The notes below the pieces were generated by a model. The model had not been told where the DNA came from and made no database searches. It saw only the letters and a list, made by a program, of their open reading frames with translations. Source: Coprobacillaceae bacterium (lineage in GTDB: Bacteria; Bacillota_I; Bacilli_A; Erysipelotrichales; Coprobacillaceae). From it: DNA of 32,000 nt. The stretch is from positions 1,410,001 through 1,442,000 of the forward strand of contig OY776328.1 of NCBI GenBank assembly GCA_963675515.1. Reading direction: 5' to 3'. Both the position numbers and the translations under genes were made by a program. The stretch's first letter is position 1. Each line of letters opens with the position of its first letter. Positions 97-23,867 of this stretch are shown here, piece by piece.

Positions 97-551
97 CATT
101 CCAAAAAGTTATCAATCTGATTTGCGAAAAAGTGTGGATTAATACTTATTTGTTTGGAATACCTTAATTAATATCGGTGGGCTACGTATATCGACGATGT
201 AGTACTAAGTAAATATATGATGTGTTGTCTAGCAAAGCAAAATTTAATATTCTGGAGGTTTTCAATGCACATATCTATCGGGATTCCTTTCTTAAAATGA
301 CATGTTGGATCTTAAGAAATAATGGATAAGATAGATGAAGCAAGGATTTGCAAAACAAAATTTTGATTGTGTTTAAGTAAACATCCGCAATAAGCAAATG
401 GTAGCGGATATTTACTCTGAAATTGGAGGCGATACGAATCATTATGAGACAACCAAAATTGATCAGAACAACAAACAGAAAAATATACTAATGAAAATTA
501 ATAGTCATTTACAGCTTAAATACTAGGATATTATTTTTCATTAAGTAATAT

Positions 552-1918
552 GGTAGTGTCAATATTTTTGTGTAAATTTGTAAAATTAGTTCTTACTGAT
601 CATCTTGGTTATTCTTCTTCTAGCAGGAACCAACGTTCGTAAGATATTCCTTTGAATCCCTTATGGGTATGGTTCATGAATTTTTGGTTATATTGTTCAA
701 ATTGCGAAACGATGTATTTCTCCACAGCTTCCTCATTTGGGAATTGTTCTTTAGCCTTGATTTTCCGCTTGAGCTGTTTATTGAAACCTTCGATCAGGTT
801 TGTTGTATATATGCTCTTGCGTACCGATTCAGGGAACAAATAGAAAGTGAATAGATTTGAATTCTCTTCAAGTGATTTTGCCACTTTTGGGTATTTTTGC
901 CCCCATTTGGTGATGAACTCCTTAAGCTCTTCACTCGCCGCTTTTTCAGTTTCGCAATTGTAAACTCGCTTAAAATCCTGTGCAATCTCACTACGGTCTT
1001 TCACTCTTGCTTTGGCTGTAATGTTTCTTGAAACATGCACCAGGCAACGTTGGATTTTGGCCATCGGAAAAGTGTCTTCAATGGCGTTCTCAACACCGGT
1101 TAGCCCGTCAGTACAGAATAACGCAACCGCTTCCAAACCGCGTGTTTTGAACTCTTCAAACAGTTCCCGCCATGTTGTTGCGGATTCGGTTGGCGCAATT
1201 GAATATCCTAGTATTTCCTTTGTTCCCTCTAGAGTCACTCCTATAGCGATATGAACCGCCTCTTTAGACACGGTATCGCGCCGCAAAGGAATAACTGTAG
1301 CGTCGGTATAAACAACTGCGTATTGCTTGTTTAACGGGCGATTTTTAAAGGCTTCAACATGGGCAACTATTTCCTTAGTAATATTGGAAACTGTCTGTCT
1401 GGAGTATTTCTTGCCGTAGATTGATTCAACAGTTTTTACAATGTCGCTGTTGGTCATCCCTGAATTAAATAGATCGATGACAGTGTTGGTGGTAGCTAGA
1501 TCGTTTCGCTGATATTTAGGGACCAGCGGTGAATCAAAGTCCCCTTGACGGTCACGTGGTATGCGCAGGTTCAACACACCATATTTAGTGTTGTAATCGC
1601 GGTTGTAATAGCCATTTCTTGAATTCGAATTCTCAGATCGGTCATATTTCTCATAATCAAGAAAAACGGTAAGTTCGGACTTCAAAATATCGTTGATGGC
1701 ATTCTCCAATTCGCTCCGGAAAAGTTCTGAGACTACTTGCTCAAAAGCTGGCAGATTATTATCATTTGATATTAGACTTCTAAGTAAAGTTGTTGTAAAA
1801 TAGTTCATGGGTGTAATCCTCTCGTAAATTGTTTTCGTCGAACTAATTTTACAAGGGTTGCACCCTTTTTTCTACTTAAAAGTTGAAATCCTATTTACAC
1901 AAAATATTTTACACTATC
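552..1918 (-). mobile_element. IS256-family insertion sequence, complete
   Basis: Imperfect 26-bp terminal inverted repeats: 552-577 GGTAGTGTCAATATTTTTGTGTAAAT versus the reverse complement of 1893-1918 GATAGTGTAAAATATTTTGTGTAAAT, about 21/26 by eye. Perfect 8-bp direct repeat AGTAATAT on both flanks (544-551 and 1919-1926). Contains a single transposase ORF. Confidence 0.9.
609..1808 (-). CDS. IS256-family (MULE/mutator-type DDE) transposase
   Basis: 399-aa ORF with a typical IS256 transposase layout: RNGYYNRDYNTKYG...LRIPRDRQG near the N-terminus, then YTDATVIP, CTDGLTG and NLIEGFNKQLKR motifs. Length is typical for the family. Confidence 0.95.
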   Translation of the reverse strand: MNYFTTTLLRSLISNDNNLPAFEQVVSELFRSELENAINDILKSELTVFLDYEKYDRSENSNSRNGYYNRDYNTKYGVLNLRIPRDRQGDFDSPLVPKYQRNDLATTNTVIDLFNSGMTNSDIVKTVESIYGKKYSRQTVSNITKEIVAHVEAFKNRPLNKQYAVVYTDATVIPLRRDTVSKEAVHIAIGVTLEGTKEILGYSIAPTESATTWRELFEEFKTRGLEAVALFCTDGLTGVENAIEDTFPMAKIQRCLVHVSRNITAKARVKDRSEIAQDFKRVYNCETEKAASEELKEFITKWGQKYPKVAKSLEENSNLFTFYLFPESVRKSIYTTNLIEGFNKQLKRKIKAKEQFPNEEAVEKYIVSQFEQYNQKFMNHTHKGFKGISYERWFLLEEE

Positions 1919-1934
1919 AGTAATATTGTATCAT

Positions 1935-1963
1935 TTGACTTGTTTTTTTTAATCTTGTATTAT
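1935..1963 (+). promoter_or_regulatory. Candidate sigma-A promoter just outside the IS256 right end
   Basis: TTGACT (1935-1940), 17-bp spacer, TATTAT (1958-1963). It lies about 450 nt upstream of the first operon gene in very AT-rich DNA, so a chance match is possible. Confidence 0.25.
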
Positions 1964-2412
1964 TAAATATGTTAGAATATTACAACAGATGTAATAAAAG
2001 GTATAATAATTATTACTTTTGTTTAATATAATATCGTGTTATACCTAGCATTATTATAAAATACAAATCATTATTCTACAGCGGTATTTCACTGGCTGTA
2101 CAAAATGAATCTTATAATTGTTTATAAGGGGCTAATGGGGATGAAATTGGTACCATCGACAATCAAACGGAAGTAGGTTAATTATGATTTTTTCTGCTTG
2201 ATTCTTTTAACAACTCCCCACTAATTTTTGCGAATGTATTAAATACAATTAAAGGACAATGGTCTCAAAGGAATGTTCGGATGTATGGAAAGGAACAGAG
2301 CCTCCATGTTTATTTGCGTATATTGGTCTGTCAAAAGTGATTTGGCGCAAACACCTATTTGTAAACATTTGGAATCAGGGCTTGATTAGGGTTGCTCGAG
2401 GGGGATTTAACA

Positions 2413-3492
2413 ATGGGATACGTAAACTACTTTTTGGATGATGGGGATATCATCGACCAAAGAATAACACGTGATTTTGAGTATAATACAAGGAAAACTT
2501 TGCAAAAGAAAAAGTGCCCATATTGTAATGATGTTTTTGAAAATGCTTATGGGTTACACGAGCATATCAAAAACAAGCATAATGATGGCAAGCCGATTTT
2601 ATTCGTTAACGGAAAGATTCCGGATAAAAACGGCGATTATTACGTCGATAAGGTAGACCTGGTCGAGATATACTTCTATGGGTCGGTATGCGATGTTTGT
2701 ATCGAAGACATGTCTGTCACTAATGATGATAAAGATAGGCTGGATGTTACGAGCACCGTACATGATCTTATCGAACAGAATAATATATGCAGAATTTCGA
2801 TTGGAAATGAATATGTAGTGATTCGGAAGTTTTCTCTCGATGCAATTAATGACGATAAGGTAAACATGATTATCAGGGGTTGGGAGAAAAAAATAATTTC
2901 AGGAGGTCAAATTGACAGGAATTATTTGGTTGATCTCAACCCTGCCGAATTGAAGTATCTTGATGGTTTTTTCGATTATTTTACCGCATGTAATGCGAAC
3001 ATTTATGACAAGGGGAAAAGGTATTTGGATGCGTATACGATCCTTAGCAGCTTTAATCCCATAAATTCAATTGGATTGGTCGTATTAAAAACAATTGCGT
3101 TCAGACTGAATTGGGTAAGCAAACTGATGGATTTGTGTGAATACAATGATGATTTTATGTTGGCATGCAATTTTTATAACGGCAATCATTATGTTGAAAA
3201 TATTGTGGAATGTCGCAACGGGGAAGGCACAATCTATATCGAAGATGATATCCTTGATTGCCTTAATGCGGTTGTCAACTACGCCAAATATATGCCAGAC
3301 GAGGTTGATGGTTACATCGCTAACTGTGGCGATTATGATAGTATTGCCGATGTGAATTTGAAGGATCGCGTCTTGCTTTTGATGGCCAGGCGTTCGATTG
3401 ACAGAGATAACATGAAATTGGCGAAATACTATTATGAAGAAATAAAATGTGAATATTTTCAAAATGACATTGACAGATACATACGGAAATGA
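2413..3492 (+). CDS. Hypothetical protein with one classical C2H2 zinc finger (first gene of the Hsp70-like operon)
   Basis: The long ORF in the track starts at TTG 2392, but ATG 2413 follows a GAGGGGG Shine-Dalgarno at about 8 nt. The motif CPYC-NDV-F-ENAYG-L-HE-H-IKNK-H fits C-x2-C-x3-F-x5-L-x2-H-x4-H exactly. I did not recognise the rest of the protein. Confidence 0.7.
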   Translation: MGYVNYFLDDGDIIDQRITRDFEYNTRKTLQKKKCPYCNDVFENAYGLHEHIKNKHNDGKPILFVNGKIPDKNGDYYVDKVDLVEIYFYGSVCDVCIEDMSVTNDDKDRLDVTSTVHDLIEQNNICRISIGNEYVVIRKFSLDAINDDKVNMIIRGWEKKIISGGQIDRNYLVDLNPAELKYLDGFFDYFTACNANIYDKGKRYLDAYTILSSFNPINSIGLVVLKTIAFRLNWVSKLMDLCEYNDDFMLACNFYNGNHYVENIVECRNGEGTIYIEDDILDCLNAVVNYAKYMPDEVDGYIANCGDYDSIADVNLKDRVLLLMARRSIDRDNMKLAKYYYEEIKCEYFQNDIDRYIRK

Positions 3493-3507
3493 TGAAAGAG
3501 GTGTGAA

Positions 3508-4581
3508 ATGGAACAGGACAATATATTAATAAATAAGAATAACGATTTTGAAGAAACAAAAGAGGTTATTCTAAACTTTGATGATGACAGCCGATTGCTT
3601 TCAAATGTGGAAAAGACATATAAAACTTACATAAACAGCAATGAGATATCTTCGGCAAATCTCATCGAATTACTGGATGCTGTGAAAAACAGGCTGACTG
3701 ATATCAATTCATGGTCAATATTCATGTTAAAGGTCTACAACAATCTGCCAAGAAAAAACAAGACTCTTAACGTCACTTTGGACTATATCAACAACTGGTG
3801 CAGGGAATTTTACATCAAACTAGAATTAAATGAAAAGTCGTATCTTGGCGTAATTGAGAGTGTGCCAACCAGAAGCACAATACTTGAATTTTTGAAGAGT
3901 GTTGAATTCAAATTGGAAAACAATTCAGTGAAAAAACAGATTACGCTTCATACCGGTGCTATCGCCAACTATCTATGGATGGCTACCAGCAGGAAGTACT
4001 ATAAAGGCGGTGCGACAAGCCTGGATGCTTCAACTATTGAAAGAGCCTTTGTCGATTACTATGGAAAGTTGGAAAGAAACCAGGTCGCAAATCTGCAGTG
4101 TGTCAGCATCCCATTACTGTTGGAGAAGAAGAATTTTAGTGGTAAATTCAAAGATGTCCAATATTTGTACTATAAAATGGAAGATCGTTTATCGGCTCAA
4201 CTAGATCAAAATGCGTTGTTGAAAAAAAACAATGATAATCTAATGCAATACAAAAAGGAAAAAGATGAGCAAATAGAAGAACTGAATCAAGAAATCGAAC
4301 ATTTTCACAGTGAAATTGAGAACAAAGATGGCACCATAAGTGATTTGAAAAATGAACTTGATGAAGCTAAAAGCATGTTTCAATTTGAAACCAATAAATA
4401 TGTACAGCAATATGAAACACTTAAAAGCAGCCTGATGAGGGATTTGAAAAGGGAATTGAATTTCGAGTTTGAAGGAATTCAGGACATAATTGCATCGATT
4501 CCTGATGATAAAAAGTTAAAAATAGAACGACGTCTGAATAGGATTGAAGATTTGCTGGATAAAAAACTGGGAGGGGAATAA
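3508..4581 (+). CDS. Hypothetical protein with a C-terminal coiled-coil region
   Basis: 357-aa ORF starting 15 nt after the previous stop, with AAGAGGTG upstream. The last 130 aa or so are charged and heptad-like (NDNLMQYKKEKDEQIEELNQEIEHFHSEIENKDGTISDLKNELDEAK...). I did not recognise any enzymatic motif. Confidence 0.7.
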   Translation: MEQDNILINKNNDFEETKEVILNFDDDSRLLSNVEKTYKTYINSNEISSANLIELLDAVKNRLTDINSWSIFMLKVYNNLPRKNKTLNVTLDYINNWCREFYIKLELNEKSYLGVIESVPTRSTILEFLKSVEFKLENNSVKKQITLHTGAIANYLWMATSRKYYKGGATSLDASTIERAFVDYYGKLERNQVANLQCVSIPLLLEKKNFSGKFKDVQYLYYKMEDRLSAQLDQNALLKKNNDNLMQYKKEKDEQIEELNQEIEHFHSEIENKDGTISDLKNELDEAKSMFQFETNKYVQQYETLKSSLMRDLKRELNFEFEGIQDIIASIPDDKKLKIERRLNRIEDLLDKKLGGE

Positions 4582-4583
4582 CC

Positions 4584-6127
4584 ATGGCAAAGATAGGGAT
4601 TGATTTTGGGACAACAAATTCGCTAATTGTGGCATATGATAAAAACAAAAGCAAGTTTTCATACTTTAACTACGAAGGTGACATCCCGGTTCCGACGTCA
4701 TCAACTGTCTGGTACAACGATAACAAAGTAATAGTTGGGGACGAAGCCAGAAAAAAAATGTACAAACACGCCGATGATGAGGGACATCATTTTGAAAAAT
4801 CTGTCAAGCTGAAACTGGGCAGTGGACATAATTTGAATGTATTCGGCAAACCCGTTGAGCCCTATAAGGTTGCCGCCCGCATTCTTCGACATATAAAGAC
4901 GGATGCGCTGGAACGTTGGCAAGCTGACAAGGCTGGGGCCGATTTGAACAGTGCCGTATTTACTGTGCCGATAAATTACAACGGGAAACAAAGAAGAGAT
5001 CTGAGAAAAAGCGCCCACGAAGCGGGCATTGAGGTCACAACGTTCATTCATGAGCCATTTGCGGCAATTGTCGGATATTATTTTGCAAAAGAAGACATCT
5101 CGTACGAAAAGGTGATCAAGAATTTGAATATGCTGGATGGCCAGCATATATTGACGTTTGATTGGGGTGGCGGGACTCTCGATATAACCGTTGTTCAAAT
5201 AAATAAAGGCAAGATGTGCGAACTGGGAACGGCCGAACTGACTGACAAAGCCGGGGATAAATTTGATGAAGATATTGCGACATATGTTTGGAATCTGTTT
5301 CTTGACAAATATGGAAAAAATATCCTTATGACCAATTGGAAAATAAGCGTAAGGCAAAATGGGGCCGGATGCTTGCCATAGCGGAGAAGTGTAAAATTGA
5401 ATTGTCATCCCAAGATAAAACAGAATTCCTGTTGGAAAACATAACCGACACGGAAGATATCGATTATATTATTACCAGAAGAGATCTGGAACATTTGTTG
5501 GAGAATACTTTGGAAATCGCTTGTAATCGGGTTGATGAGGCTCTATTGGAAGCAGGCATCCAAGATATAGATATTTCTCATGTTCTATTGACGGGAGGTA
5601 CATGTTATATCCCGGCAATCCAGAATCGAATGATTGAAAAATTTGGGCACAGGGTTGAAAGTGTTAAAAACGCGGATTTGCTTATCGCTCAAGGTGCAGC
5701 GGTAATTTCCGAATTGGGATGGAGACCTTTTTTGACAAAGGATATTCAAATTCAATTGTCGGATGACTCATACTGGTCAATCTTTGAAAGGGACTTTCCC
5801 ATTGTGCCTCAAAAAGAAGTGATTAGGAAGGAAGAATTTATCTGCGTTGATCAGACTTCAAAGCAGGCAAAGGTTATAGTGTGTGAGGGAGTCGAACAGG
5901 AATCCGACCGGACGTTGGCAATACTGAATGTTCAGACGCTTGGAGACAAACGGTTTGGTGACGACATTCTTGTTGAAGCCAAAATTGATAAAGATATTGT
6001 ATTGACTGTCAGTGCGCATAGTAAAATGAGCATTGGTTATAAACAGCCCGAGGAGGAATACTCGACCAGAGTGACGCGGGAAATACATCAGGTGTGTTTT
6101 GGATTGGAATTTGGGGGATGGAAATGA
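4584..6127 (+). pseudogene. Hsp70/DnaK-superfamily ATPase, reading frame broken by a 1-nt deletion in an A-run
   Basis: Two track ORFs (4584-5381 and 5336-6127) together carry the Hsp70 motifs: IGIDFGTTNS (phosphate 1), DWGGGTLDITVV (phosphate 2), AEKCKIELSS, and LTGGTCYIPAIQ...AQGAAV (adenosine). A beta-rich C-terminal region follows. Adding one A to the A6 run at 5315-5320 gives a continuous ...DKYGKKYPYDQLENKRKAKWGRMLAIAEKCKIELS... Confidence 0.85.
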
Positions 6128-6345
6128 TGTCTAAACCCAAATCGAACATCAAACTTGTTTCAAATATCATGCTTAAATCAAAATACGAAAAGGACCGTAA
6201 GGGTCTGATCTATGTTCCATGGGAGCTATTATCCAAAAGCGATAGGGATTCGCGGAATATATTGCATTTATCACAGAGACAGATAGATCAATGCGAAAAG
6301 CACTTATTTTATGCCAAGCGAATTGTCGACATAGTAGACGAGTAG
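6124..6345 (+). CDS. Small basic hypothetical protein (73 aa), translationally coupled to the Hsp70-like gene
   Basis: ATG 6124 overlaps the upstream TGA (6125-6127) as ATGA, with a GGGGGA Shine-Dalgarno at 6112-6117. I saw no HPD J-domain motif. Confidence 0.55.
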   Translation: MMSKPKSNIKLVSNIMLKSKYEKDRKGLIYVPWELLSKSDRDSRNILHLSQRQIDQCEKHLFYAKRIVDIVDE

Positions 6346-6573
6346 GGAGCATGTTAATAAATTTGTGATTGTAATAATATTTTAGTAGTGTAAGGAACTA
6401 TTTCTTGTATCACTGCTACAATAAATATGTCCTTGCGCAATCACAATTCTGTGGTTTACCATTGTTTAAGAAGGTCTTATAGATGATGGAGCATTGGATC
6501 CTGGTGTTTCTTGATGTGGATGGGGGTTTCCGGCTTTTCCATCGTTGAATTAGTAGGTTCCAATGACTCTTTA

Positions 6574-6597
6574 CTGCTTCTTAGGGAGCAGTTTTTA
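6574..6597 (+). terminator. Rho-independent terminator
   Basis: Stem ctgcttc/ggagcag (one G-U pair) with loop ttag, followed by TTTTTAT. It lies about 230 nt after the stop of the 73-aa gene. Confidence 0.6.
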
Positions 6598-6953
6598 TAT
6601 TTGCTCAGACTCAAGGAAAAGTTGATATAAATTTCTATCCGCGCTTATGTAATTGGCTTGCCTGGGGGTGCTACAGTAGAGAGTTAATCTACAAATGGTT
6701 AGTAACATATTGAAATAAGATTGAATGAAATGTATAATGAAAATATATGAGTTGTTGTTTATCGATTTTCACATGATAATGAATGAGTCAATTTCCTTCA
6801 CCTATGTATAATATTATTCTGTGATTCTTGTCAGGATTTTCGAATAAGCTTCCACTAGGCTTGAACCTGATAGTAAATATCACAGTCTTTGTCATGACGG
6901 CATGTTTACCTTAACAGATGCCAATTTGGAGTAAAAGAAATGGGGTAATAATA

Positions 6954-7373
6954 ATGAGCTCGATGCATAATGAATTGAAAATTGAGATTTCCAATGGACA
7001 TGAGGTTGATAAAGCCGTGACTGTCAAACAGGTATACAGATTATTCAATAAGCTGGGTATCACCGATTCCAGGATCCTTTGGCTTCCAGACGGACTGGGC
7101 AACAAGATCAACTTCTACTTCAAGAGCAACGAGCGTGACAACAACTATGTCGATCTTGATGGGTATTATAGCAATGGCACCTACAATGTCGATATGTTGG
7201 CGGCTGACATAAACAAATTGCTCAATCACCATAAGGTCACAATATATTACAGTTGTGAGACCGCTGCAGGTGAAGATTCTTATTATACATATTTTGGTGA
7301 CATCGACAGCCAGGATGTCATCTGCACTTATTCCGATGATGATTATGTGTTAGAAGAGGACTACTCCAAGTAG
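6954..7373 (+). CDS. Hypothetical small acidic protein (about 139 aa)
   Basis: The ORF is open from 6918. ATG 6954 has a weak TGGGG Shine-Dalgarno about 8 nt upstream. The C-terminus is rich in D/E/Y. I recognised no family, so coding status rests on ORF length and codon look only. Confidence 0.45.
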   Translation: MSSMHNELKIEISNGHEVDKAVTVKQVYRLFNKLGITDSRILWLPDGLGNKINFYFKSNERDNNYVDLDGYYSNGTYNVDMLAADINKLLNHHKVTIYYSCETAAGEDSYYTYFGDIDSQDVICTYSDDDYVLEEDYSK

Positions 7374-7795: not shown

Positions 7796-7817
7796 ATGTG
7801 CGAAGGGGTTGGTAAAT

Positions 7818-8939
7818 ATGAAACTTTTACGGATAAAGGCATACAATTACAGGAATTGTGCAGATGGTATATACCTTGATTTTGTTCCGGTTGCCAGAAA
7901 GACTGAAGAAGATAAGACCTATGAGTTCAATGAAGTGGGAGAATCATTGTATACATTCTCGACCACGGCAATCATCGGAAAAAATGCTTCAGGTAAGACA
8001 AGTGTTTTGAAGCTTATCGATAACGCTTATCGTATCCTAGGTTCTTTTCAATTGGAAGATGAATTGATATCAATCAGTGGTACCCGATTGGAGCTCACAT
8101 TTTTTCATGATGTAAAACTTTACCGCTACGAAGTTGAGCTGCAAAAGCAAGACAATCTGGGAAACAGTCTTTCGTTTGGAAATGAGAAGTTGTTCGTAAG
8201 CGACTATTTCAAGTCCAAAAGCAACAAACTGTTTGAACAGGATATTTACAAGGAAATGATAATTGATAAAGAGTTGCCTGACCATATCTCCAAATTATTC
8301 TATATTTTGAAAGAAAGAAAGAACTATTGTTACTACTATGATGATTTAAGCAGCAAGGATGATATCTATCGCTCAGTTTACCGGCTTTATGAAAACGGTC
8401 TGCTCAAGAAAAAATATTGGAAACATATATTGCATCTGTTTGACGACAACATTGTCAAATTGGAAGAAGTTAAGAACGACATCTTCAGGCTTGATTATTC
8501 GGGTAAATCGATGGAACTTAGTGCTAAGGAATTGTTCTACATTCTTTCGAGTGGAACTTCAAAGGGAATAGTGCTCTACACTAGGGCCATTCAGGCGCTT
8601 GTTGAGGGCAATACGTTTATCATCGATGAAATCGAAAATCACTTCCATAAGACTCTGGTTGAGAATCTTATCGTTCTTTTCAAGGACAAGGCTGTAAACA
8701 AAAAAGGAGCTAGCCTAATTTTTTCAACCCACTACTGTGAGTTGTTAGACATGTTCAATCGCAATGATAATATCTGGGTTGCCAAATCCATGGACAAGGT
8801 TTTCTTGACCAATATGTACCGGGATTATTCAATTCGAAATGATCTGTTGAAAAGCAAAAAATTCTATGAAGACAATTTCGGAACTGCGGTAAGTTACGAT
8901 TCGCTGATGAACCTGAAAAGAGAATTGATGGATGAATAA
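7818..8939 (+). CDS. AAA-type (ABC/AAA_21-like) ATPase, AbiLi/RloA/AriA-like
   Basis: ATG 7818 follows a GAAGGGG Shine-Dalgarno; the track ORF starts at TTG 7809. Walker A is GKNASGKTS, Walker B-like is FIIDEIENHFH, and STHY lies downstream. Confidence 0.75.
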   Translation: MKLLRIKAYNYRNCADGIYLDFVPVARKTEEDKTYEFNEVGESLYTFSTTAIIGKNASGKTSVLKLIDNAYRILGSFQLEDELISISGTRLELTFFHDVKLYRYEVELQKQDNLGNSLSFGNEKLFVSDYFKSKSNKLFEQDIYKEMIIDKELPDHISKLFYILKERKNYCYYYDDLSSKDDIYRSVYRLYENGLLKKKYWKHILHLFDDNIVKLEEVKNDIFRLDYSGKSMELSAKELFYILSSGTSKGIVLYTRAIQALVEGNTFIIDEIENHFHKTLVENLIVLFKDKAVNKKGASLIFSTHYCELLDMFNRNDNIWVAKSMDKVFLTNMYRDYSIRNDLLKSKKFYEDNFGTAVSYDSLMNLKRELMDE

Positions 8940-9465
8940 ACTGCTGATTCTTTGCGAGGGTTCAAATGAAAAGAAGATCATAGATTTGTTGTTGAGACAT
9001 GACAAACTGAAATTTACCACAAATGACCTTGTTGGCTTGGTTCCTTACCATGCCAGGCAGCTGAATTCCCCTGTTATCGTTACGGCACTAAATATGTATC
9101 AGGGAAATTTTGACATAATTCGAGTTGGTGACAAACAAAATGATCAATTGAAGCTACCACGCGACCTTAAACGAAGGATTGGAATAATACACAAATATTG
9201 TACTAAACCAGAGTTGGAAGTCTTATTGATCATTAATGAAGGTCTATACACGCAATTTTCCCGGTCCGGAAATAATAAGCCTAAGGAGTTTGCAAAAAAG
9301 CATATCGTGTACCAAAAGAGGCGATATGACAATTCAACCGAATTTTATGAATTGTACTACGGCAATCGAATCGATGACCTGGTTGACAATCTTAAAGAAT
9401 ATCGACGGTTGAAGAAGCATTCTTCTGATGAAATGTTTTTGGTAGACCTACTAAATAGCAGATGA
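8932..9465 (+). CDS. RloB/Toprim-like small protein (RloB, DUF4276 or DUF4435 type)
   Basis: 8-nt overlap with the upstream ATPase gene. The N-terminal LLILCEGSNEKK fits the CEGxxxE Toprim glutamate motif. IIRVGDKQND and KPELEVLLIINEG resemble the DxD and NPxFExWLLxH motifs of RloB-like proteins, from memory. Confidence 0.55.
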   Translation: MNKLLILCEGSNEKKIIDLLLRHDKLKFTTNDLVGLVPYHARQLNSPVIVTALNMYQGNFDIIRVGDKQNDQLKLPRDLKRRIGIIHKYCTKPELEVLLIINEGLYTQFSRSGNNKPKEFAKKHIVYQKRRYDNSTEFYELYYGNRIDDLVDNLKEYRRLKKHSSDEMFLVDLLNSR

Positions 9466-9657: not shown

Positions 9658-11463
9658 TTATTTCTGTCTTTGGATTCCTTTTTTAAGTTCTTTGATTTCT
9701 TTGGCCGTCAGTTGGCGCAAATATTTGGGCAGGTCCTTGTTGTATGGTAATAGCTTTCTGATTTCGACCTCATCACTTGGATCGATGCTTGGTAATCTTT
9801 CCAATACGTACTCCATGTACATGTATGCTGACAACCCATTCTCTTCGGCACTAAGTAGTAACGAGTAAATGATTGCCGCAGCTTGGGCTCCTTTGGGGCT
9901 GGTATAGAACTTGCAGCGATTTCTAGATACCACAAATGGTCTGATAACTCTCTCGGCGCTTGAATTGTCGAACGGAACTTTTGGATTATTGAATACTTCA
10001 CGGAATTCCTTCTCATGGTTCAATTCGTAATTAATTGCCTTGATCAACGTAGGTTTCATATTCACTTCAGGTAGCAAGATTATTTCTTTAAGGTACGCTA
10101 AAAAATTGTCATAAATAGGCTTTACGATATCATTTCGGCCCTTATGAACATACTCAAAATATTTAACTGGATTTTTGCCGTGTTTTGACTTAGCGGTCGT
10201 TTCAATCTTGTTTTTTGCTTCGAATATTTTCTGGTAATAACGATAGCACGTATATTCGTAACTTTTGCTTTTATCACTACCTTTTGGCAATACCTCAAGG
10301 GCTTTACGGAAATAACGGAAGGCGTGGACGTGGCAAAAACAGTTGGTGACATTATCAAGGGCCTCGTAGGCCCCATATGCATCGGTTACCAGGTAGTTCG
10401 AATAATCTCCGATGAAATCTTCGACAACACGTTTTGAGCGAGTGGGATCATAACGATATAAGATGATCGGCACATCATATTGGCAGGTTCTTACCACCCA
10501 CATGTAGGATTTACTTTGAGCCGTCTTGCCCTCTTCATTTAAAATTTGGGTCGTGGTTTCGTCGCAGTGTATCACATTCATGGCCAACAGATCCTTGCGC
10601 ATGCATTCGAACAGTAAACCCAGATGTACCGAGGCTTTAATCATCCAATTGGCCATATTTTGTCTAGGGATGACAACATCATTCTCCAGGAATCGTTTTT
10701 CCTGAGCGGCCAGGGGCAAACCCTTCAAATATTTCATATCCATTATATTCGCAATCAGCGAAGGTGAAGCAATGCTCCCCTTGATGACAGGTTGTCTGCC
10801 CGGAACTCTTTTATAAGATGACTTGCCGTCCAGGTTATGTTCCTGGCAAGCAACACATTCGTATACTGGAGTACGGTATATATTCATTTCCACTTTGGCT
10901 GGGGTATAGACGAGTTCCTTTCTTTCATCGTACTTTTTTATTTTCATGGTTGTACCACAAAGGTCGCAGACATCGAAATTTTCTGGTGTCGGCTCGTCAA
11001 TGATATTGGTTTTTAGGTGATCGTAGTTAATGTGCTTTTCTTTAGGGATTCTTACTTTTCTTTTGTACCCTTTGATTTCCTTGACTTCTATTTCTTCAGT
11101 CTCAGTTACCACACCAAAATCGATACCAATCAGACTGAAAAGGTCGGGACCTTGATTGTATTCTTTTATATTATTTCTCTGAGAGGAATATCTGGCGTTT
11201 TCTAATATCTTTATATATTCGTTTTTCTGTTGCAGTTCCAATTTGCGTTCGTTGATTTCACTAATCAGCTTCTTATTTTCGGCAATCAAAGTCTTTTCTT
11301 TAGCAGTGAATTTCTTTTCTTTGGCAGCCAACAGCTCATTTTCTTTGATAAGTTTAACTTTTGAAATACGGTCGGATTCGATTTTCTCACAAAGCTCTTT
11401 TTCTCTATTTTTGAAAGCAGCAATCAGCTCTTCTTTAGACATATTTTCCATCAGCTTTATCAT
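9658..11463 (-). CDS. tnpC: IS66-family transposase TnpC
   Basis: N-terminal coiled-coil/leucine-zipper region, a zinc-finger-like CDLCG...CVACQ, and a DDE-type core (HCDETT..., VTDAYGAY). The start is set at ATG 11463, after a GAGGTGG Shine-Dalgarno. Confidence 0.9.
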   Translation of the reverse strand: MIKLMENMSKEELIAAFKNREKELCEKIESDRISKVKLIKENELLAAKEKKFTAKEKTLIAENKKLISEINERKLELQQKNEYIKILENARYSSQRNNIKEYNQGPDLFSLIGIDFGVVTETEEIEVKEIKGYKRKVRIPKEKHINYDHLKTNIIDEPTPENFDVCDLCGTTMKIKKYDERKELVYTPAKVEMNIYRTPVYECVACQEHNLDGKSSYKRVPGRQPVIKGSIASPSLIANIMDMKYLKGLPLAAQEKRFLENDVVIPRQNMANWMIKASVHLGLLFECMRKDLLAMNVIHCDETTTQILNEEGKTAQSKSYMWVVRTCQYDVPIILYRYDPTRSKRVVEDFIGDYSNYLVTDAYGAYEALDNVTNCFCHVHAFRYFRKALEVLPKGSDKSKSYEYTCYRYYQKIFEAKNKIETTAKSKHGKNPVKYFEYVHKGRNDIVKPIYDNFLAYLKEIILLPEVNMKPTLIKAINYELNHEKEFREVFNNPKVPFDNSSAERVIRPFVVSRNRCKFYTSPKGAQAAAIIYSLLLSAEENGLSAYMYMEYVLERLPSIDPSDEVEIRKLLPYNKDLPKYLRQLTAKEIKELKKGIQRQK

Positions 11464-11608
11464 CGAAATCCACCTCGTTTCTCTTTGAGAGTATACCATA
11501 AAAATGGCTGTAAGTCTTGATTTTACGGCAATTTCTTAAAGATGTGAATAACTTAAAAAGATATAAAAGAAACCCACAAATTATTGTGAATTACTCCTAT
11601 ATCTTTCG

Positions 11609-16623: not shown

Positions 16624-19341
16624 ATGAATAAGAAAATACATGTTATCCCGCATACCCATTGGGACCGCGAGTGGTATTTCACCACTTCCCGGTCGAAGGT
16701 TTACCTCATGGAGGATTTTGGCCGCGTCTTGGCGACATTGGAGAATGATCCGGATTATAAATACTACATGCTTGATGGCCAGGCATCATTGCTTGATGAT
16801 TACCTAGCCTGGATGCCCCAGGACTTTGAGCGCATCACAACCCTGGTCAAATCGGGAAGGCTGAAAGTCGGGCCATGGTACACCCAAAGCGACCAGCTGG
16901 TCATCTCGGGGGAAAGCATTGTCCGCAATCTCTATTACGGAATCGAAAGCTGCCAGGAATTTGGCGGATACATGAATGTCGGCTATGTTCCTGATTCATT
17001 CGGTCAGGCGGGCAACATGCCCCAGATCTACAGGGACTTTGGCATCGAGGATACGCTGTTCTGGCGCGGGGTATCCGACGACATGGTCAAGCACACCGAC
17101 TTCAACTGGAAAGGTGATGACGGTTCGACAGTCTTTGCGACCCAGATCCCCTTTGGCTATTATATCGGTGGCAATATCCCAGAGGGTGAAGGCATCGATG
17201 AATTCTGGCAAAAGGAATGCTTTGAGAAGGCGGGGAAAAGGAGCGCGACGAACAATATCTATTTTCCCAATGGCTTCGACCAGGCACCAATCAGGACCAA
17301 CCTGCCTGAGCTGTTAAAACAAAGGAACCAAGTGGATCAAGAAAACGAATATGTTATCAGCTGCATCGAGGACTACATCAAAGATGTCAAGGCCCAAAAT
17401 CCCGAGCTGGAAGAAGTGACAGGGGAACTGGTGATCGCCAAGCATATGCGCATCCACAAGTCGATCTTCTCTTCCCGTTCGGATCTCAAGGTGTTAAACA
17501 CGAAAGTCCAGAACTATGTGTCAAATGTGCTTGAGCCAATCCTTACCATGTCATACAGCCTGAAAAACCCATATCCCCATGGGGCGGTGAGCCAGATCTG
17601 GAAATTGTTGTTCGAGAATGCGGCCCATGACTCGATTGGTTCGTGCATTTCCGACCAGGCCAATGAGGATGTCTATCTGCGTTACAAGCAGGCGGGAGAT
17701 ATTGCGACCAACCTGGTTGAGCTTCATTCAAGGCTGATTGCGACCAAGATCAACAGCAATGAAGATCAGATGACCTTCACAATCATCAATCCCTTGCCTC
17801 AGTCAAGAAGCGAGATCGTCAAGGTCAAAGCCTATGTGCCCGGGGGCAAATTCGCAATCAAGGATGAACAAGGCAATCCGGTTGCTTATACAATCCTGGA
17901 AAGAAAGGATCTTACCGACTATGTCATGACCCAGACGATCAGACTCAATCCATCAAAGGAAATCTATCTGCCTGAAAGGGTTGATGAAGTGGTCCTGGCG
18001 TTTGAAACCAGAGATATCCCGGCAATGGGTTATGTCCAGTACAGCCTTGAGGTCGACCGGGATACAAGTCAGGAATTGAAAGAAACCGACAAGCTTGAAA
18101 ACGAGTATTACGAAATCACAGTGGAATCAGACGGCTCGCTGACAATCTATGACAAGATAGCTGGATACGAGTACAAGAACCAGGCGATTCTGGTGGAAAA
18201 CGGGGATGATGGCGACAGTTTCAACTATTCGCCACCTCGTCATGATCTCGAAGTCTATTCAACTGCTTCACCGTTTAGCTTTAAGATTGAAGGTTCGCCG
18301 ATTTTACAAGAAGCCAAAATAGACTTCGTGATGGATGTTCCGGCAGATCTGGAAGAGCGAGCAATGGGTAAAACCAGTGTCAAGTTGCCGGTAACGATGA
18401 CTGTCGGTCTTAAAAAAGGCAGCAAGGTGATCGATTTGAAGGTCAAAGTGGCCAATGCCGGATTGTCGCACCGCCTCTGTGTGATGTTTGACAGTCATCT
18501 GGCAACGAAATTCAACTATGCCGACCAGCAGTTCGGTTCAATCAAAAGACCAAACTACTATGAAAAGGAAATGGCTCTCTATTTCCAGGAGGAAAACAAG
18601 GAAGTCAAAGAAACAAAATCATTTGTCCAGCTGGCCAACTGGGCCAACGACCAGTCTTCATGGCAGGAACCACCGATATCAATCGAACCGACCCAGTCTT
18701 ATGTGGCCTTGACTGACCAAAGCCGCGGTATCGCCGTATTCCCACAAGGGGTCAGGGAATACGAGATTGTCAATGAACAGGGCAGCCAGATTCGTCTGAC
18801 ACTGTTCAGGACTTATGGCTACATGGGCAAGGAGAATCTGGTGTACCGGCCGGGCCGCGCTTCAGGTGAAAAGATCATCGCCACTCCCGATGCGCAGCTG
18901 CTAAAGGAAATGGAATTCGACTTCGGGTTCACGACCTTTGTGGGAACGCTCAACGATGCCAATATCGACACTATGGCCAAAAGCTACAACAGCGAGATGG
19001 AAGTTTATCCATACGCCGAGTTTCTCAATGGCCGCCTGATTTTCTCGCAGACAGAAATTGAAGGAAATGAACCAAACAGCTATTCTCTGATGAAAACCAA
19101 CGGCAACTTGGTTGTCAGCGCCATCAAGAAAGCGGAGAAGGAGCAAGGGTACCTTATCCGCCTCTATAATGGCAAGGACCATCAGGAATTGGATGATGTT
19201 ATCAGGTTCAATACTCCAATCACTCAGGCTTGGTATACCAACCTGAAGGAAGAAAAGGTTGAAGCCATCCCGGTGGAAAACAACGAAATAACAATCAGTA
19301 ATCTTGGACATTGCAAGTTTGTGACCATCTTGGTCAAATAA
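16624..19341 (+). CDS. Glycoside hydrolase family 38 alpha-mannosidase (MngB-like)
   Basis: 905 aa. The N-terminal HVIPHTHWDREWYF motif is characteristic of GH38. Pairing with a fructose-family PTS matches the mngA/mngB logic. Confidence 0.9.
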   Translation: MNKKIHVIPHTHWDREWYFTTSRSKVYLMEDFGRVLATLENDPDYKYYMLDGQASLLDDYLAWMPQDFERITTLVKSGRLKVGPWYTQSDQLVISGESIVRNLYYGIESCQEFGGYMNVGYVPDSFGQAGNMPQIYRDFGIEDTLFWRGVSDDMVKHTDFNWKGDDGSTVFATQIPFGYYIGGNIPEGEGIDEFWQKECFEKAGKRSATNNIYFPNGFDQAPIRTNLPELLKQRNQVDQENEYVISCIEDYIKDVKAQNPELEEVTGELVIAKHMRIHKSIFSSRSDLKVLNTKVQNYVSNVLEPILTMSYSLKNPYPHGAVSQIWKLLFENAAHDSIGSCISDQANEDVYLRYKQAGDIATNLVELHSRLIATKINSNEDQMTFTIINPLPQSRSEIVKVKAYVPGGKFAIKDEQGNPVAYTILERKDLTDYVMTQTIRLNPSKEIYLPERVDEVVLAFETRDIPAMGYVQYSLEVDRDTSQELKETDKLENEYYEITVESDGSLTIYDKIAGYEYKNQAILVENGDDGDSFNYSPPRHDLEVYSTASPFSFKIEGSPILQEAKIDFVMDVPADLEERAMGKTSVKLPVTMTVGLKKGSKVIDLKVKVANAGLSHRLCVMFDSHLATKFNYADQQFGSIKRPNYYEKEMALYFQEENKEVKETKSFVQLANWANDQSSWQEPPISIEPTQSYVALTDQSRGIAVFPQGVREYEIVNEQGSQIRLTLFRTYGYMGKENLVYRPGRASGEKIIATPDAQLLKEMEFDFGFTTFVGTLNDANIDTMAKSYNSEMEVYPYAEFLNGRLIFSQTEIEGNEPNSYSLMKTNGNLVVSAIKKAEKEQGYLIRLYNGKDHQELDDVIRFNTPITQAWYTNLKEEKVEAIPVENNEITISNLGHCKFVTILVK

Positions 19342-19357
19342 TTCCTAAACACTAGAG

Positions 19358-19388
19358 CACCTTTTATGAAAATAGAAGGTGTTTTTTG
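19358..19388 (+). terminator. Rho-independent terminator of the PTS/mannosidase operon
   Basis: Stem cacctt/aaggtg with a 12-nt loop, followed by TTTTTTG. Confidence 0.6.
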
Positions 19389-19549
19389 TATTATTTATTC
19401 AAATAGTTGCTCAAAATTTCATGTATGATATAAGTGAAATAATGATTGTTTTCCTTCATTATATTTATTATTAATGGTAAGATTACATTAGTAGTTACTT
19501 AATACACTTATGTTATATAAATAGCTGGTTTAGAGAGGCGGGGGCGATT

Positions 19550-21166
19550 ATGGCGTCGGTAAATTTATACAAAATTGAGAATGGCAATGAACCTGAAATA
19601 GATAATGTTTTAAGCGAGTTTGAACACATAGATTCAAAAAAAATAGTAAGTCAAGATAACTTAGTAGTTGAATTCGAACTTTATATTATCGATAATTACA
19701 ATAAGAAGGTGATAAATTGGAATTGGATAGTAAGAGAATTCATTGAGGATGACATATATATTGAACCGGGTCCGATCGGGATATTAAAAATCACCAAGGA
19801 TGAAAATCTCTATGTTGTAACATTTGGTCATGCGTTTTTCAAAGTTGACAAGTATTGTGACCATGAATTTGGATTTGAGATTGCCAAAAGATTGGACTAT
19901 TTAGAAATCAGGACAACTACATTGTCATCGCCACATTCCAAACGTAATAAATCAATTAGCACATACATAGATTATAATGAATTGGAATTTGATAGTGGAG
20001 AATCTTTTTCGAAAATAAAGGTAAAAGTAAAAACGCCGGATGATGATTTGTTTAAACCATCTGTTGAAATAGGCAGTTCAGTTAAATTTAACGTAACGAA
20101 TGGTAATCTGGAGACAATAGGTGAGTTGGTTTGTTATATTGAGAATATATTAGAACGGAAAGAAAAATATCAAATACCAATATTCACCAGAGTAAAAGAC
20201 CAAGAAACTATAAATCAACTCGAGTCAAGCCTAAAAGAAGCGACAATTGATGATATGTTCAAGATCAGTATTTCAGAGTTAGATATAATTGGAGCAAATG
20301 AGATATTTAATCATAATGATGACGAATATGAGATTCATTTCGGTCGGAAAAGCAAGAATGTAATTGGACTTACGATTGACGATGTTAAAGCTTTTTGCGA
20401 CGAATATGCGATAGATGTAGCAGAACACCTGTTTGATGTTAAAATTAAAATGTTTCAAGATGAACAGGTAATTGTCAATTCAAAAGTGCATGATTTGATT
20501 GATTTTACAAACGATGAGATGCGTTGTTTGTTATCAAAGGGACGGTGGTACAACTACAATGATGATTACATTAACTATCTTAACGATTCGATTTTAGAAA
20601 TAGGTTGTTTTTATGTACCTGAATACGATTTTTCGGAAGAAAAACATTTGGGATATTTAGAAGACAAATATATAGAATTGCAATTTACGTCTGATTACAA
20701 AGACTTGCCTAAAGAGAAGGCGATTTCTAAATTGAAGAAGAAATATTATGCAGAATATGTTTTTAATGAATTGATGGTAAAAGAGGGATATAAGAACTAT
20801 GATCGTGATTTGTCATCATTTCCGGGATCTGGTTCAAAAATTGAATTGATGGACCTTTATAAAGATAAAACGATGTTTGCTGTGAAGATGGGGAATTCGT
20901 CAGGAAAGTTGACGTATGTCTTTGAACAGTCGCTAATCTCACTTAAGAAATATAAACATAGTAAGAAATCTGATTTACCAAAAGTAGATTTCATAGCTGT
21001 ATGGCTGGTACTGGAAAGAAAGAATGTATTACCTAACACGGAAGATGGCCAGCCCGATTTAAGAGAGTTAGAAATGCTGATGTTAAAAAACAAAATGGAT
21101 AGTTGGAAAAAAGAAGTCAGATTATCAGGATATACCCCAATAATATATATAAACTATAAAAAATAG
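19550..21166 (+). CDS. Hypothetical 538-aa protein, possibly DUF6119/TIGR04141 (sporadically distributed) family
   Basis: GAGGCGGGGG Shine-Dalgarno. VVTFGHAFFKVDKYCDHEFGFEIAKRL and the C-terminal ELMDLYKDKTMFAVKMGNSSGKLTYVFEQSLISL resemble my memory of the family motifs TFGHG...DFGL and D-x(n)-VK...S..LSHLF.Q. The gene is visibly more AT-rich than its neighbours. Confidence 0.6.
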   Translation: MASVNLYKIENGNEPEIDNVLSEFEHIDSKKIVSQDNLVVEFELYIIDNYNKKVINWNWIVREFIEDDIYIEPGPIGILKITKDENLYVVTFGHAFFKVDKYCDHEFGFEIAKRLDYLEIRTTTLSSPHSKRNKSISTYIDYNELEFDSGESFSKIKVKVKTPDDDLFKPSVEIGSSVKFNVTNGNLETIGELVCYIENILERKEKYQIPIFTRVKDQETINQLESSLKEATIDDMFKISISELDIIGANEIFNHNDDEYEIHFGRKSKNVIGLTIDDVKAFCDEYAIDVAEHLFDVKIKMFQDEQVIVNSKVHDLIDFTNDEMRCLLSKGRWYNYNDDYINYLNDSILEIGCFYVPEYDFSEEKHLGYLEDKYIELQFTSDYKDLPKEKAISKLKKKYYAEYVFNELMVKEGYKNYDRDLSSFPGSGSKIELMDLYKDKTMFAVKMGNSSGKLTYVFEQSLISLKKYKHSKKSDLPKVDFIAVWLVLERKNVLPNTEDGQPDLRELEMLMLKNKMDSWKKEVRLSGYTPIIYINYKK

Positions 21167-21365
21167 TTAGGATGTGGCTCATTGTATTTTTGACCCATAC
21201 AATTTGATTAAGTGGCATGTGGCAAATATTGAAGAGAAACCATATAATAATTTTACTTGCTATTCTTGATTGTTTTCCATTCACCAAATTGCCGCGGCTT
21301 CATTGCTTTACAATCGATGCAAATGGGAATAAACTTAGAGTAGATGAATTCAGGAGGAAACGACA

Positions 21366-21632
21366 ATGAAGGTTACGGTATATGGAACTGATCTTTGCAG
21401 TGAGACAATGAAGGCTTTGGTTGAGTTGGAGGCGGCAAATGCCGACTTTGAATTCAAGAACTTCACCAAAGAATTAAGTGTCCTGAAGGAATTCCTGCAC
21501 GAGCGGGATTCCAATGAGATGTTCGATCAGGCCAAGAAGGAAATGCGGATCGGGATTCCTTTTTTCGTACTTGAAGACGGAAGCAAGACCCACTCGCTCA
21601 ACCAGGTCTTGAAGGCCATCGGTAAAAAGTAG
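21366..21632 (+). CDS. Glutaredoxin/NrdH-like thioredoxin-fold protein (single Cys in place of CxxC)
   Basis: 88 aa. KVTVYGTDLCSET plus GIPFFVLEDGS fit the small glutaredoxin-like layout. AGGAGG Shine-Dalgarno. Confidence 0.5.
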   Translation: MKVTVYGTDLCSETMKALVELEAANADFEFKNFTKELSVLKEFLHERDSNEMFDQAKKEMRIGIPFFVLEDGSKTHSLNQVLKAIGKK

Positions 21633-22442: not shown

Positions 22443-23867
22443 ATGAATGAACCGATGAGATTGAAGTGGCATTCACTGTACGGACAAATACTCCAGGACA
22501 GGAAAATACTAGAAGCATGGAAACAGGTTAAAGCTAATCATGGAAGTGGTGGAATTGATGGGATAACCATTGAGCGATTCATGCAACATGAACAAGACAA
22601 CCTGGACAAGCTGTTAGATGAACTGAAATTGAAGGGATATAGACCAACCCCTGTAAGGCGAGTATATATACCTAAGAAAAACGGAAAGAAAAGACCATTG
22701 GGAATACCAATAGTCAAGGATCGGATAGTTCAGCAGGTGTTGTACAATATTCTTTCCCCAAAATATGAGGATGGAATATTTCATCCTCGTTCAGTTGGGT
22801 ATCGGCCGAAACGTGGTGTCGATACTGCGATGCAAATTATCATCAAGAACGTAGAGGAAGGAAATAACTGGATATACGATTGTGATATCAAAGGATTCTT
22901 TGACAACATTCCCCACAAGAAGTTGATGAAGGTGTTGAACAAATGTATCGCCGACGGTACTGTTCTTGACTTGATTTGGTCATGGTTAAAAGCTGGTTAC
23001 ATGGAAGATGGAAAGCATATGCAAAGTAGAAGTGGAACCCCGCAGGGCGGGGTCATTTCACCACTACTGTCTAACATCTACCTAAATGAACTGGATTGGA
23101 AGCTCAGCGAATCTAACATTGAATTCGTGCGTTATGCCGATGATTTTCTCCTGTTTGCGAAAACAGAAGAAGAAATCGAAAGAGCTGGTAAAATCGCCAA
23201 AGAAGTACTACATTCGTTAGGACTTGAGATGGCTATGGATAAAACCAAAGTGGTGGACTTTAAAAATGATGATTTCACATTTCTTGGATTTGACTTCAAG
23301 CACTGGAGGAAAAACAAGAGGGGTAATGATTACTATTTCATAGTTCCCACAGACAAATCACTCAAAGATTTCAAAAAGAAAATCAAGGACAAGACGCAAA
23401 GAAAGTGGACTTTTTCCCAAGATAAATGGGTAGCCATGCTTAATCCGATTATAGTTGGTAAAGTAAATTACTATCTCAATGTCTATAAGGCGTTGACAAT
23501 ATTCAAAAAGCATAACATCAAAACCCATTGTAATATCAAAATAATGGGTGGGATGCTCAATAGAATCGATCAGTATATTCGCCAAAGATTGAGAATGTGC
23601 ATGTTGCATAAACATCCGACAATCAGGAAAGCGTTTGGAATGACGGTCAAATGGAATATTGCATTCTTTGCGATGATTGGCTTGAAGCCTGCAAACTGGC
23701 ATTATTTCAATACCATGTATGGATATCCCATTGAGCTGTATGTAAAAAGACAGCAATATGGCAACAAGATAGAACATGCGAAAAGGAAAGACCGTGATAG
23801 GAAAAACGGCATGAATAGGTACTCGAAAGAGAGAAATAAGAAAATAGCCTACTCGTTTAGCAAGTAG
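22443..23867 (+). CDS. Group II intron reverse transcriptase/maturase (no HNH endonuclease domain seen)
   Basis: 474 aa. RT motifs include RPTPVRRVYIPKKNGKKRPLGIPIVKDRIVQQ, GTPQGGVISPLLSNIYL and YADDFLLF. A maturase X-like region follows, then a basic tail without Cys/His HNH motifs. Confidence 0.95.
   Translation: MNEPMRLKWHSLYGQILQDRKILEAWKQVKANHGSGGIDGITIERFMQHEQDNLDKLLDELKLKGYRPTPVRRVYIPKKNGKKRPLGIPIVKDRIVQQVLYNILSPKYEDGIFHPRSVGYRPKRGVDTAMQIIIKNVEEGNNWIYDCDIKGFFDNIPHKKLMKVLNKCIADGTVLDLIWSWLKAGYMEDGKHMQSRSGTPQGGVISPLLSNIYLNELDWKLSESNIEFVRYADDFLLFAKTEEEIERAGKIAKEVLHSLGLEMAMDKTKVVDFKNDDFTFLGFDFKHWRKNKRGNDYYFIVPTDKSLKDFKKKIKDKTQRKWTFSQDKWVAMLNPIIVGKVNYYLNVYKALTIFKKHNIKTHCNIKIMGGMLNRIDQYIRQRLRMCMLHKHPTIRKAFGMTVKWNIAFFAMIGLKPANWHYFNTMYGYPIELYVKRQQYGNKIEHAKRKDRDRKNGMNRYSKERNKKIAYSFSK

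Follow-up and report, generated by a model that had tools for sequence, protein, structure and literature searches.

To our knowledge, no experimentally validated defense system is built on Hsp70. In the literature searched (full text), Hsp70-containing predicted conflict systems were of two classes only, the coiled-coil nuclease tandems (CoCoNuTs) and the GTPase-tubulin-HSP70 systems, and these are computational predictions only, with a different core (GTPases, McrBC). Here we describe a compact, ~3.9-kb cassette of four genes (g1 to g4), one of which encodes an Hsp70-family ATPase. It lies in a 32,000-nt stretch of a Coprobacillaceae bacterium genome (contig OY776328.1, positions 1,410,001 to 1,442,000), hereafter the window, whose positions are used throughout unless a locus number precedes them. 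Judging from sequence comparison, the cassette is probably an undescribed four-component Hsp70-centered defense system found on islands in gut and rumen Bacillota, the basis of this candidate defense role being genomic context only. Its genes are as follows:

2413-3492 (+), g1, C2H2-finger protein of 359 aa (open reading frame, ORF)
3508-4581 (+), g2, coiled-coil protein of 357 aa (ORF)
4584-6127 (+), g3, Hsp70-family ATPase, frameshifted (ORFs 4584-5381 and 5336-6127, plus Pfam)
5315-5320 (+), A6 homopolymer within g3, one A short of the intact frame and hence the frameshift site
6124-6345 (+), g4, basic protein of 73 aa with an isoelectric point of 9.5 (ORF)

The four ORFs share a strand and are spaced as originally read from the sequence, with a 15-nt gap between g1 and g2, a 2-nt gap between g2 and g3, and an ATGA overlap between g3 and g4 at 6124-6127.

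CoCoNuTs are defined by an McrB-type NxD GTPase with an McrC/DUF2357 partner, usually accompanied by HEPN or other nucleases. In their Type III, the Hsp70-like nucleotide-binding domain (NBD)/substrate-binding domain (SBD) proteins CnuD and CnuCD occur with HEAT repeats, coiled coils, the McrB GTPase, McrC/DUF2357, and HEPN, and CnuD is reported to carry a degenerate Walker A-like motif, its hydrolysis being predicted to be poor (Bell et al., eLife 2024, PMC11090510). GTPase-centric conflict systems carry tubulin and HSP70 components. At their core are one or two TRAFAC GTPases, to which a tubulin homologue, GrpE, or DnaJ fusions are often added; the systems are concentrated in multicellular actinobacteria and cyanobacteria and have been proposed to act by multimeric assembly (Kaur, Burroughs, Iyer, Aravind, eLife 2020, PMC7159879). 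As in both classes, the cassette described here joins helical repeats and coiled coils to an Hsp70 unit and lacks the normal co-chaperones. Like the CoCoNuTs it is a predicted defense-island system, and with the GTPase-tubulin-HSP70 class it shares the use of an Hsp70 family protein in a role other than proteostasis, within a conflict system predicted to be regulated and NTP-dependent. However, no McrB-like NxD GTPase or McrC/DUF2357 was found in g1-g4 (Pfam, PADLOC) or in the conserved cassette of 13 contexts, no HEPN or other nuclease domain was detected in g1-g4, and CoCoNuTs have not been described with a C2H2 finger protein or a small protein resembling g4. The catalytic residues of g3 are all invariant, which sets it apart from the degenerate CnuD as that protein is described. 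From the second class the cassette differs in having no GTPase, tubulin, GrpE, or J-domain, in its hosts, which are gut Bacillota, and in its neighbors, which vary by locus. Since it has none of the GTPase, McrC, nuclease, and tubulin parts by which they are defined, the cassette is not a member of either class. The original prediction had matched the genes to no named defense system, and this stands: PADLOC-DB 2.0.0 contained no fitting model (g1, g3, and g4 gave no match at E<=0.1), and this gene combination was not described anywhere in the literature searched. Beyond the zinc finger and a generic coiled coil, the partner proteins g1, g2, and g4 had no Pfam, PADLOC, PHROG, or PDB relative.

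To follow the cassette in other genomes, we assembled 32 loci from contigs encoding Hsp70 homologues and from metagenome contigs scanned with family-specific SBD patterns; a contig scan that used a generic Hsp70 N-terminal motif as its pattern gave a best match only 34% identical. Every related locus with enough flanking sequence carried g1-g2-g3-g4 in the same order and on the same strand, in 13 distinct contexts, and a distant clade of g1 (P0196) also precedes a g2-like gene (hidden Markov model E 8e-18) and then an Hsp70 gene. Mean pairwise identity across nine complete cassettes was 57% for g3, 35% for g1, 28% for g2, and 41% for g4. Such a pattern, 57% versus 28-41%, is what one would expect if specificity parts diversify around a conserved engine. 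The g3-type gene is accessory, island-borne, and patchy in its distribution. Searches with the DNA at 1900-6900 returned no match in plasmids or phages, g1 homologues were absent from 50,697 phage genomes and 72,556 plasmid records, the cassette was not found among IMG/VR viral contigs, and g1, g2, and g4 had no PHROG match at E<0.001. A prophage, conjugative, or chaperone assignment, any of which would have undercut the predicted role, was therefore not found in the phage, plasmid, IMG/VR, and PHROG searches, nor was a J-domain or GrpE partner. The sole plasmid match among the 72,556 was a relic SBD fragment, a 190-aa gene annotated as 'TPR repeat-containing protein' that adjoins a transposase on the Calothrix sp. 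NIES-4105 plasmid AP018291.1 (L116, 365957-366529). It was rejected as a homologue, being an apparent relic whose SBD-like stretch is 27% identical to the g3 C-terminal domain. Intact homologous cassettes exist (e.g., L082, L103, L107, and L110), so the idea is directly testable.

Known defense genes lay within 10 kb of the cassette in at least 10 of the 13 distinct contexts (a plain count), as the proposed role had led us to look for. The types represented were bacteriophage exclusion (BREX), Type I and Type IIG restriction-modification (R-M), GmrSD, AbiL, Dcm/Vsr/HNH, Schlafen-like, and DUF4238; the flanks vary by locus, yet they are mostly defense genes. By locus, these neighbors were:

window: AbiLi-like ATPase pair (AbiL)
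L082: HipA_C, Vsr, Dcm, HATPase
L084: SNIPE/T5orf172
L086: KAP NTPase, Schlafen-type helicase
L091: Type IIG R-M with SNF2 helicase
L093: BREX PglZ and BrxL
L102: Type I R-M (HsdM/S/R)
L103: RE_AlwI, D12 methyltransferase, GmrSD, AAA_15/21, SLFN_AlbA_2
L104-106: BrxC/PglY with PAPS reductase
L110: Type I R-M, GmrSD, Fic, two DUF4238 genes, EC042_2821

Because the operon is conserved, defense genes adjoin it in most contexts, and no described system matched it, we regard the cassette as a strong candidate for a new form of immunity. The suggestion of an undescribed conflict or defense system is accordingly supported as a candidate, and none of the checks on co-occurrence, on mapping to a known function, or on defense neighbors refuted it. 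The context is also distinct from hrcA-grpE-dnaK-dnaJ, as first noted. Only L081 adjoins hrcA-grpE-dnaK, and the cassette there is separate and on the opposite strand, for which reason membership in that operon was rejected. A small Xre-type helix-turn-helix (HTH) gene stands immediately 5' of g1 in several cassettes (L082:6648-6842, L103:6498-6836, and the equivalents in L104/L105); a remnant of such a gene was sought upstream of g1 in the window and none was found.

The Hsp70 assignment of g3 is secure at the level of sequence. Pfam HSP70 (PF00012) matched residues 4-483 at E=1.4e-55 (189 bits versus a cut-off of 20.6), the match extending to profile position 488 of 599. Phosphate-1, phosphate-2, and adenosine motifs mark an actin-fold NBD, and the equivalents of the DnaK catalytic residues (D7, K75, E157, D193, T198, and D200) were invariant in a 22-sequence homologue alignment. 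In a profile search of the PDB, the closest solved relatives were DnaK proteins (E 1e-52), with an alignment that spans DnaK residue 5 to ~481-515 and so runs through the beta-sandwich SBD. This bears out the initial description of gene 3 as an Hsp70/actin-fold ATPase with nucleotide-binding motifs and a beta-rich C-terminal region, the latter being the SBD-beta. The protein stops where the helical lid of DnaK starts, and it has neither lid nor C-terminal tail. The g3 protein shares with DnaK (of the DnaK-DnaJ-GrpE machine), HscA, and HscC a homologous NBD and SBD-beta with conserved catalytic residues, but differs from them in lacking the lid and tail, in an operon without J-protein or GrpE, and in its scores. 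NCBIfam DnaK and HscA models matched g3 at E 1e-49 to 1e-42, far below the equivalog cut-offs (168 bits versus 648 for DnaK, 143 versus 708 for HscA), and the HscC cut-off was also unmet. In DnaK, R167 and N170 are J-domain contact residues; according to the profile alignment, g3 has T and H at these positions. A motif and Pfam scan of g1-g4 detected no HPD motif and no DnaJ or GrpE match in any of the proteins, in agreement with the earlier observation that a J-domain or GrpE-like partner is missing. By sequence, then, g3 is a lidless, catalytically intact Hsp70-type ATPase. As a natural 'minimal' Hsp70 without lid, J-protein, or GrpE, it has partners that may show new control of the Hsp70 cycle.

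The g1 protein is acidic. An N-terminal helix is followed by a single probable C2H2 finger (residues 33-56), then by a small beta domain at 62-139, and finally by a repeat domain, all-alpha, at 147-357. The textbook finger pattern first recognized in the sequence, C35-x2-C38-x3-F-x5-L-x2-H51-x4-H56, is indeed present and is conserved among 12 homologues, with C35, C38, and H51 invariant and H56 nearly so. Pfam zf-C2H2 models matched 11 of these 12 family members, all below the gathering score (best E 1.6e-5), and a PDB search with the g1 profile returned CTCF and other fingers at ~E 5e-8. An AlphaFold2 model from a 93-sequence alignment, with a predicted local distance difference test (pLDDT) score of 91.9 and a predicted template modeling score of 0.80, placed a beta-beta-alpha finger at 33-55. 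Foldseek comparison of this model with PDB and BFVD gave no match with E<0.1. The weak top matches above that value were TPR, ARM, Rap, or PlcR-like solenoids, which weakly suggest a TPR/ARM-like fold for the modeled alpha-repeat domain. The beta domain was also considered as a PD-(D/E)xK nuclease and rejected, since it has no conserved acidic/lysine triad. Word-indexed protein searches recovered 2 proteins with g1 alone and 4 with a 12-sequence g1 profile, so that exhaustive HMMER was required; run with the g1 family against 1.84 billion representatives, it returned 113 proteins at E<1e-10 (~100 clusters at 50% identity), uniformly 344-395 aa except for some eukaryotic multi-finger proteins. 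The g1 family is rare but real, and its architecture is fixed.

A different arrangement of g1 was seen in P0225 (899 aa; L114:2823-5522 and L115:258-2957), in which the N-terminal 150 residues of g1, i.e., helix, C2H2 finger, and beta domain, are fused to a metallo-beta-lactamase/RMMBL (beta-CASP-like) hydrolase. The ORF that follows P0225 is helical with a coiled coil and is cut by the contig end; upstream are two Xre HTH genes, a YpsA/SLOG gene, and a resolvase. This operon may represent a sister system, one whose nuclease effector is fused. Since the same module is fused to a hydrolase there, the N-terminal part of g1 appears to be a portable recognition module.

The g2 protein is all-helical, with a variable N-terminal domain (14-185), a 119-residue helix (210-328), and a conserved C-terminal segment (~290-355). 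The long C-terminal coiled coil that had been predicted corresponds to this one very long helix, presumed to form a coiled coil, in an AlphaFold2 model with a pLDDT of 77.6 overall and >90 at residues 230-300. Searches of Pfam, PADLOC, and PDB returned generic coiled-coil matches only, Foldseek of the model against PDB gave no match with E<0.1, and the one PHROG match was a marginal coiled coil (E 0.008). Against PADLOC, g2 matched only the coiled-coil stretch of LmuB (E 1.5e-5), and since the match is confined to that stretch, kinship with SMC/LmuB was rejected.

The g4 protein, which proved basic as described, has a conserved N-terminal segment, 'KSxxKLxSN(I/V)(M/V)LKS', and an acidic C-terminus. 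A hydrophobic core flanked by lysines is the character of DnaK-binding motifs. The family has two forms, of ~70 aa and ~91 aa. The window protein is of the short form, which has none of the four cysteines found in the long form and ends in acidic residues; because short forms are common in the family, we rejected the idea of a truncated gene and take the 73-aa protein as a natural short form. A J-domain was likewise rejected, as there is no HPD motif. In the ~91-aa form (e.g., L082:10539-10814, L103:10533-10808, and L110:10596-10868), one N-terminal cysteine co-varies with a C-terminal C-x2-C-x5-C. This is the cysteine pattern of the Cas4/AddB iron-sulfur 'staple', and these proteins gave weak Cas_Cas4/PDDEXK_1 Pfam matches (best E 0.008).

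How might such a cassette protect its host? In the mechanism we propose, the Hsp70 g3 would serve as an ATP-driven sensor or switch rather than as a housekeeping foldase. A dimeric coiled coil of g2 would scaffold the complex, its conserved C-terminal helices (~70 residues, the most conserved part of the protein) docking on the Hsp70, while the N-terminal segment of g4, with its lysine-flanked hydrophobic core, would fill the substrate cleft as a pseudo-substrate and hold the system off. Recognition of invader nucleic acid or protein would fall to g1, through its finger, beta domain, and alpha-repeat domain. Upon infection, a phage product might displace or titrate the Hsp70-bound partner, a step akin to the chaperone-titration control of sigma-32 or Hsf1 and to toxin-antitoxin-chaperone (TAC) defense, and ATP hydrolysis could then drive an assembly able to halt the development of the phage or to arrest the cell. 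TAC systems pair a SecB-like chaperone with a recognizable toxin and antitoxin, and bNACHT25 senses infection in a DnaJ-dependent manner, borrowing the host's own DnaJ (PMC12169576). Both are precedents for chaperone-client binding as an infection sensor, and it is this logic that our proposal borrows; however, both do without an Hsp70 gene of their own, and the cassette showed no homology to their components. That a dedicated lidless, co-chaperone-independent Hsp70 acts as an immune engine, its ATP-driven client binding and release detecting phage proteins or nucleic acids through a finger/alpha-repeat adaptor and a coiled-coil scaffold, and halts infection without a classical nuclease, NADase, or pore effector, is a tentative proposal that we consider less likely than not. 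If true, it would be the first system in which a chaperone is both immune receptor and effector, and a prokaryotic parallel to the part played by Hsp70/Hsp90 in eukaryotic nucleotide-binding leucine-rich repeat immunity.

Several observations weigh against a defense role or against parts of the mechanism. The support is guilt by association, which can mislead, so that defense is a candidate role only, and the contexts at L081 and L100 have no recognizable defense neighbors. In g1-g4 we could detect no effector domain, whether nuclease, NADase, pore-forming, or other. From this it follows that, if the cassette is protective, its mechanism lies outside the current catalogue; it might work by chaperone titration, by sequestering a phage factor or forcing it to unfold, or through an enzymatic fold not seen before. 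For g2 and g4, the proposed roles are drawn from conservation patterns only, and the TPR-like view of the g1 C-terminal domain depends on Foldseek matches with E>0.1. Finally, g3 is frameshifted in the window, as is the gene of one metagenomic homologue (L100), through either assembly error or genuine loss.

This last point bears on the state of the window copy, in which g3 is split by a 1-nt deletion into two overlapping ORFs (4584-5381 and 5336-6127). Insertion of one A yielded a 514-aa g3 that aligned over 99-100% of its length with >100 homologues at 50-63% identity, and the restored stretch 'KYGKKYPYDQLE' agrees with the homologue pattern 'K/YG.KY..(E/A)(Y/F)LE'. The Hsp70 gene of L100 (7872-9411) is also broken by a 1-nt indel in an A-run, at 8184-8189. 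Together, the A-run indels of L100 and the window could reflect recurrent slippage or inactivation, or else recurrent sequencing error. The surroundings of the cassette comprise the following features:

551-1919 (-), complete IS256-family insertion sequence with 27-nt terminal inverted repeats (Transposase_mut E 2e-115); context only
1935-2007 (+), putative operon promoter, two sigma-70-like matches of 10/12 each (consensus match only)
6573-6600 (+), terminator-like hairpin followed by a T-run, ~230 nt past g4 (pattern match only)
6918-7373 (+), 151-aa ORF between the Hsp70 cassette and the AbiL-like ATPase
7809-9465 (+), AbiL-like two-gene cassette, a known defense system, formed by an AbiLi/AAA_21 ABC ATPase and a 177-aa partner; neighbor, context only
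7809-8939 (+), AbiLi-like ABC ATPase (PADLOC AbiLi E 1.3e-39)
8932-9465 (+), 177-aa ORF overlapping the stop of the AbiL-like ATPase
9658-11499, IS66-family transposase

The cassette does lie between an IS256 element upstream and an AbiL-like pair downstream, as first reported, and it is AT-richer than the sugar operon, with a GC content of 0.35-0.41 versus 0.43-0.51 in the phosphotransferase system/mannosidase operon. Between IS256 and IS66 lies a ~7.7-kb low-GC island with both the Hsp70 cassette and the AbiL pair. IS256 ends ~490 bp upstream of g1, and both promoter matches lie just beyond its right end, upstream of g1. The 177-aa ORF is presumably the AbiLii-like partner of the ATPase; neither it nor the 151-aa ORF had a match in Pfam, PADLOC, NCBIfam, or PHROGs. 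The IS256 transposase of the window shares at least 90% identity with its counterparts in Erysipelotrichaceae metagenome-assembled genomes, and the source genome holds several IS256 copies, intact and fragmentary.

An ATPase gene split by a frameshift, the N-terminal fragment of which the source assembly annotates as a protein of its own (265 aa), on an island flanked by IS256 and IS66, would fit a dead, pseudogenized remnant between two insertion sequences, whatever the family does elsewhere. We take this to be a serious prospect for the window locus, if one falling slightly short of even. Against it, g1, g2, and g4 are intact, with no loss of length against their homologues, and a lone 1-nt homopolymer indel together with fragmentary IS256 transposase calls in a 2.88-Mb single-contig assembly is typical of long-read homopolymer error; for this reason, sequencing error is as plausible as real inactivation. 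Unless the frameshift is an assembly error, the window copy is probably inactive. Either outcome concerns the state of this copy and not the nature of the system.

A second explanation does concern the nature of the system. The cassette might be a TAC-like addiction module in which g1, g2, or g4 is toxic and the Hsp70 restrains the toxin or its antidote, and which would persist in islands as a selfish stabilization element, with or without an anti-phage role. Tight translational coupling, a small basic protein in which one segment may bind a chaperone, upstream Xre HTH regulators in several loci, and toxin-antitoxin-like genes nearby (e.g., HipA_C and Fic) would all be in keeping with such a module, and disrupted ATPase genes at two loci would be tolerable if the toxin were also lost or weak. 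However, there is no recognizable toxin fold, four genes and ~1,300 codons are large for a toxin-antitoxin module, and TAC chaperones are SecB-like, not Hsp70. We consider this explanation unlikely, although it overlaps with the Hsp70-centered defense system favored here, because toxin-antitoxin and TAC modules are often defense systems. Equally improbable, in place of an autonomous immune system, is a dedicated chaperone or assembly machine for non-defense island cargo, an accessory or regulatory module for neighboring R-M or BREX systems, or an actin-like or Hsp70-like cytoskeletal or partition device. In its favor, chaperoning is the normal work of Hsp70s, the actin-fold NBD has a weak PHROG match to a 'partition protein' (E 1e-5), and the cassette adjoins many different large defense systems. 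However, those systems change by locus, which leaves no constant client among the nearby genes; plasmids and phages, on which one would expect a partition function, yielded no copy of the cassette; the clear SBD-beta speaks against a ParM- or MreB-type filament protein; and fast partner evolution is unusual for housekeeping co-chaperones.

Two further genes lie farther along the window. Directly past the mannosidase gene, a 538-aa DUF6119 protein (Pfam E 2.4e-29) is encoded at 19550-21166 (+), inside a sharp AT-rich patch (32% GC, ~19000-21500); it had no PADLOC or PHROG match, and its gene was probably acquired separately by horizontal transfer. A 474-aa reverse transcriptase is encoded at 22443-23867 (+) and matched the generic reverse transcriptase model of PADLOC at E 4e-88. 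Since a second copy of at least 90% identity is present in the same genome, this protein is most likely a group II intron maturase and not a defense reverse transcriptase.

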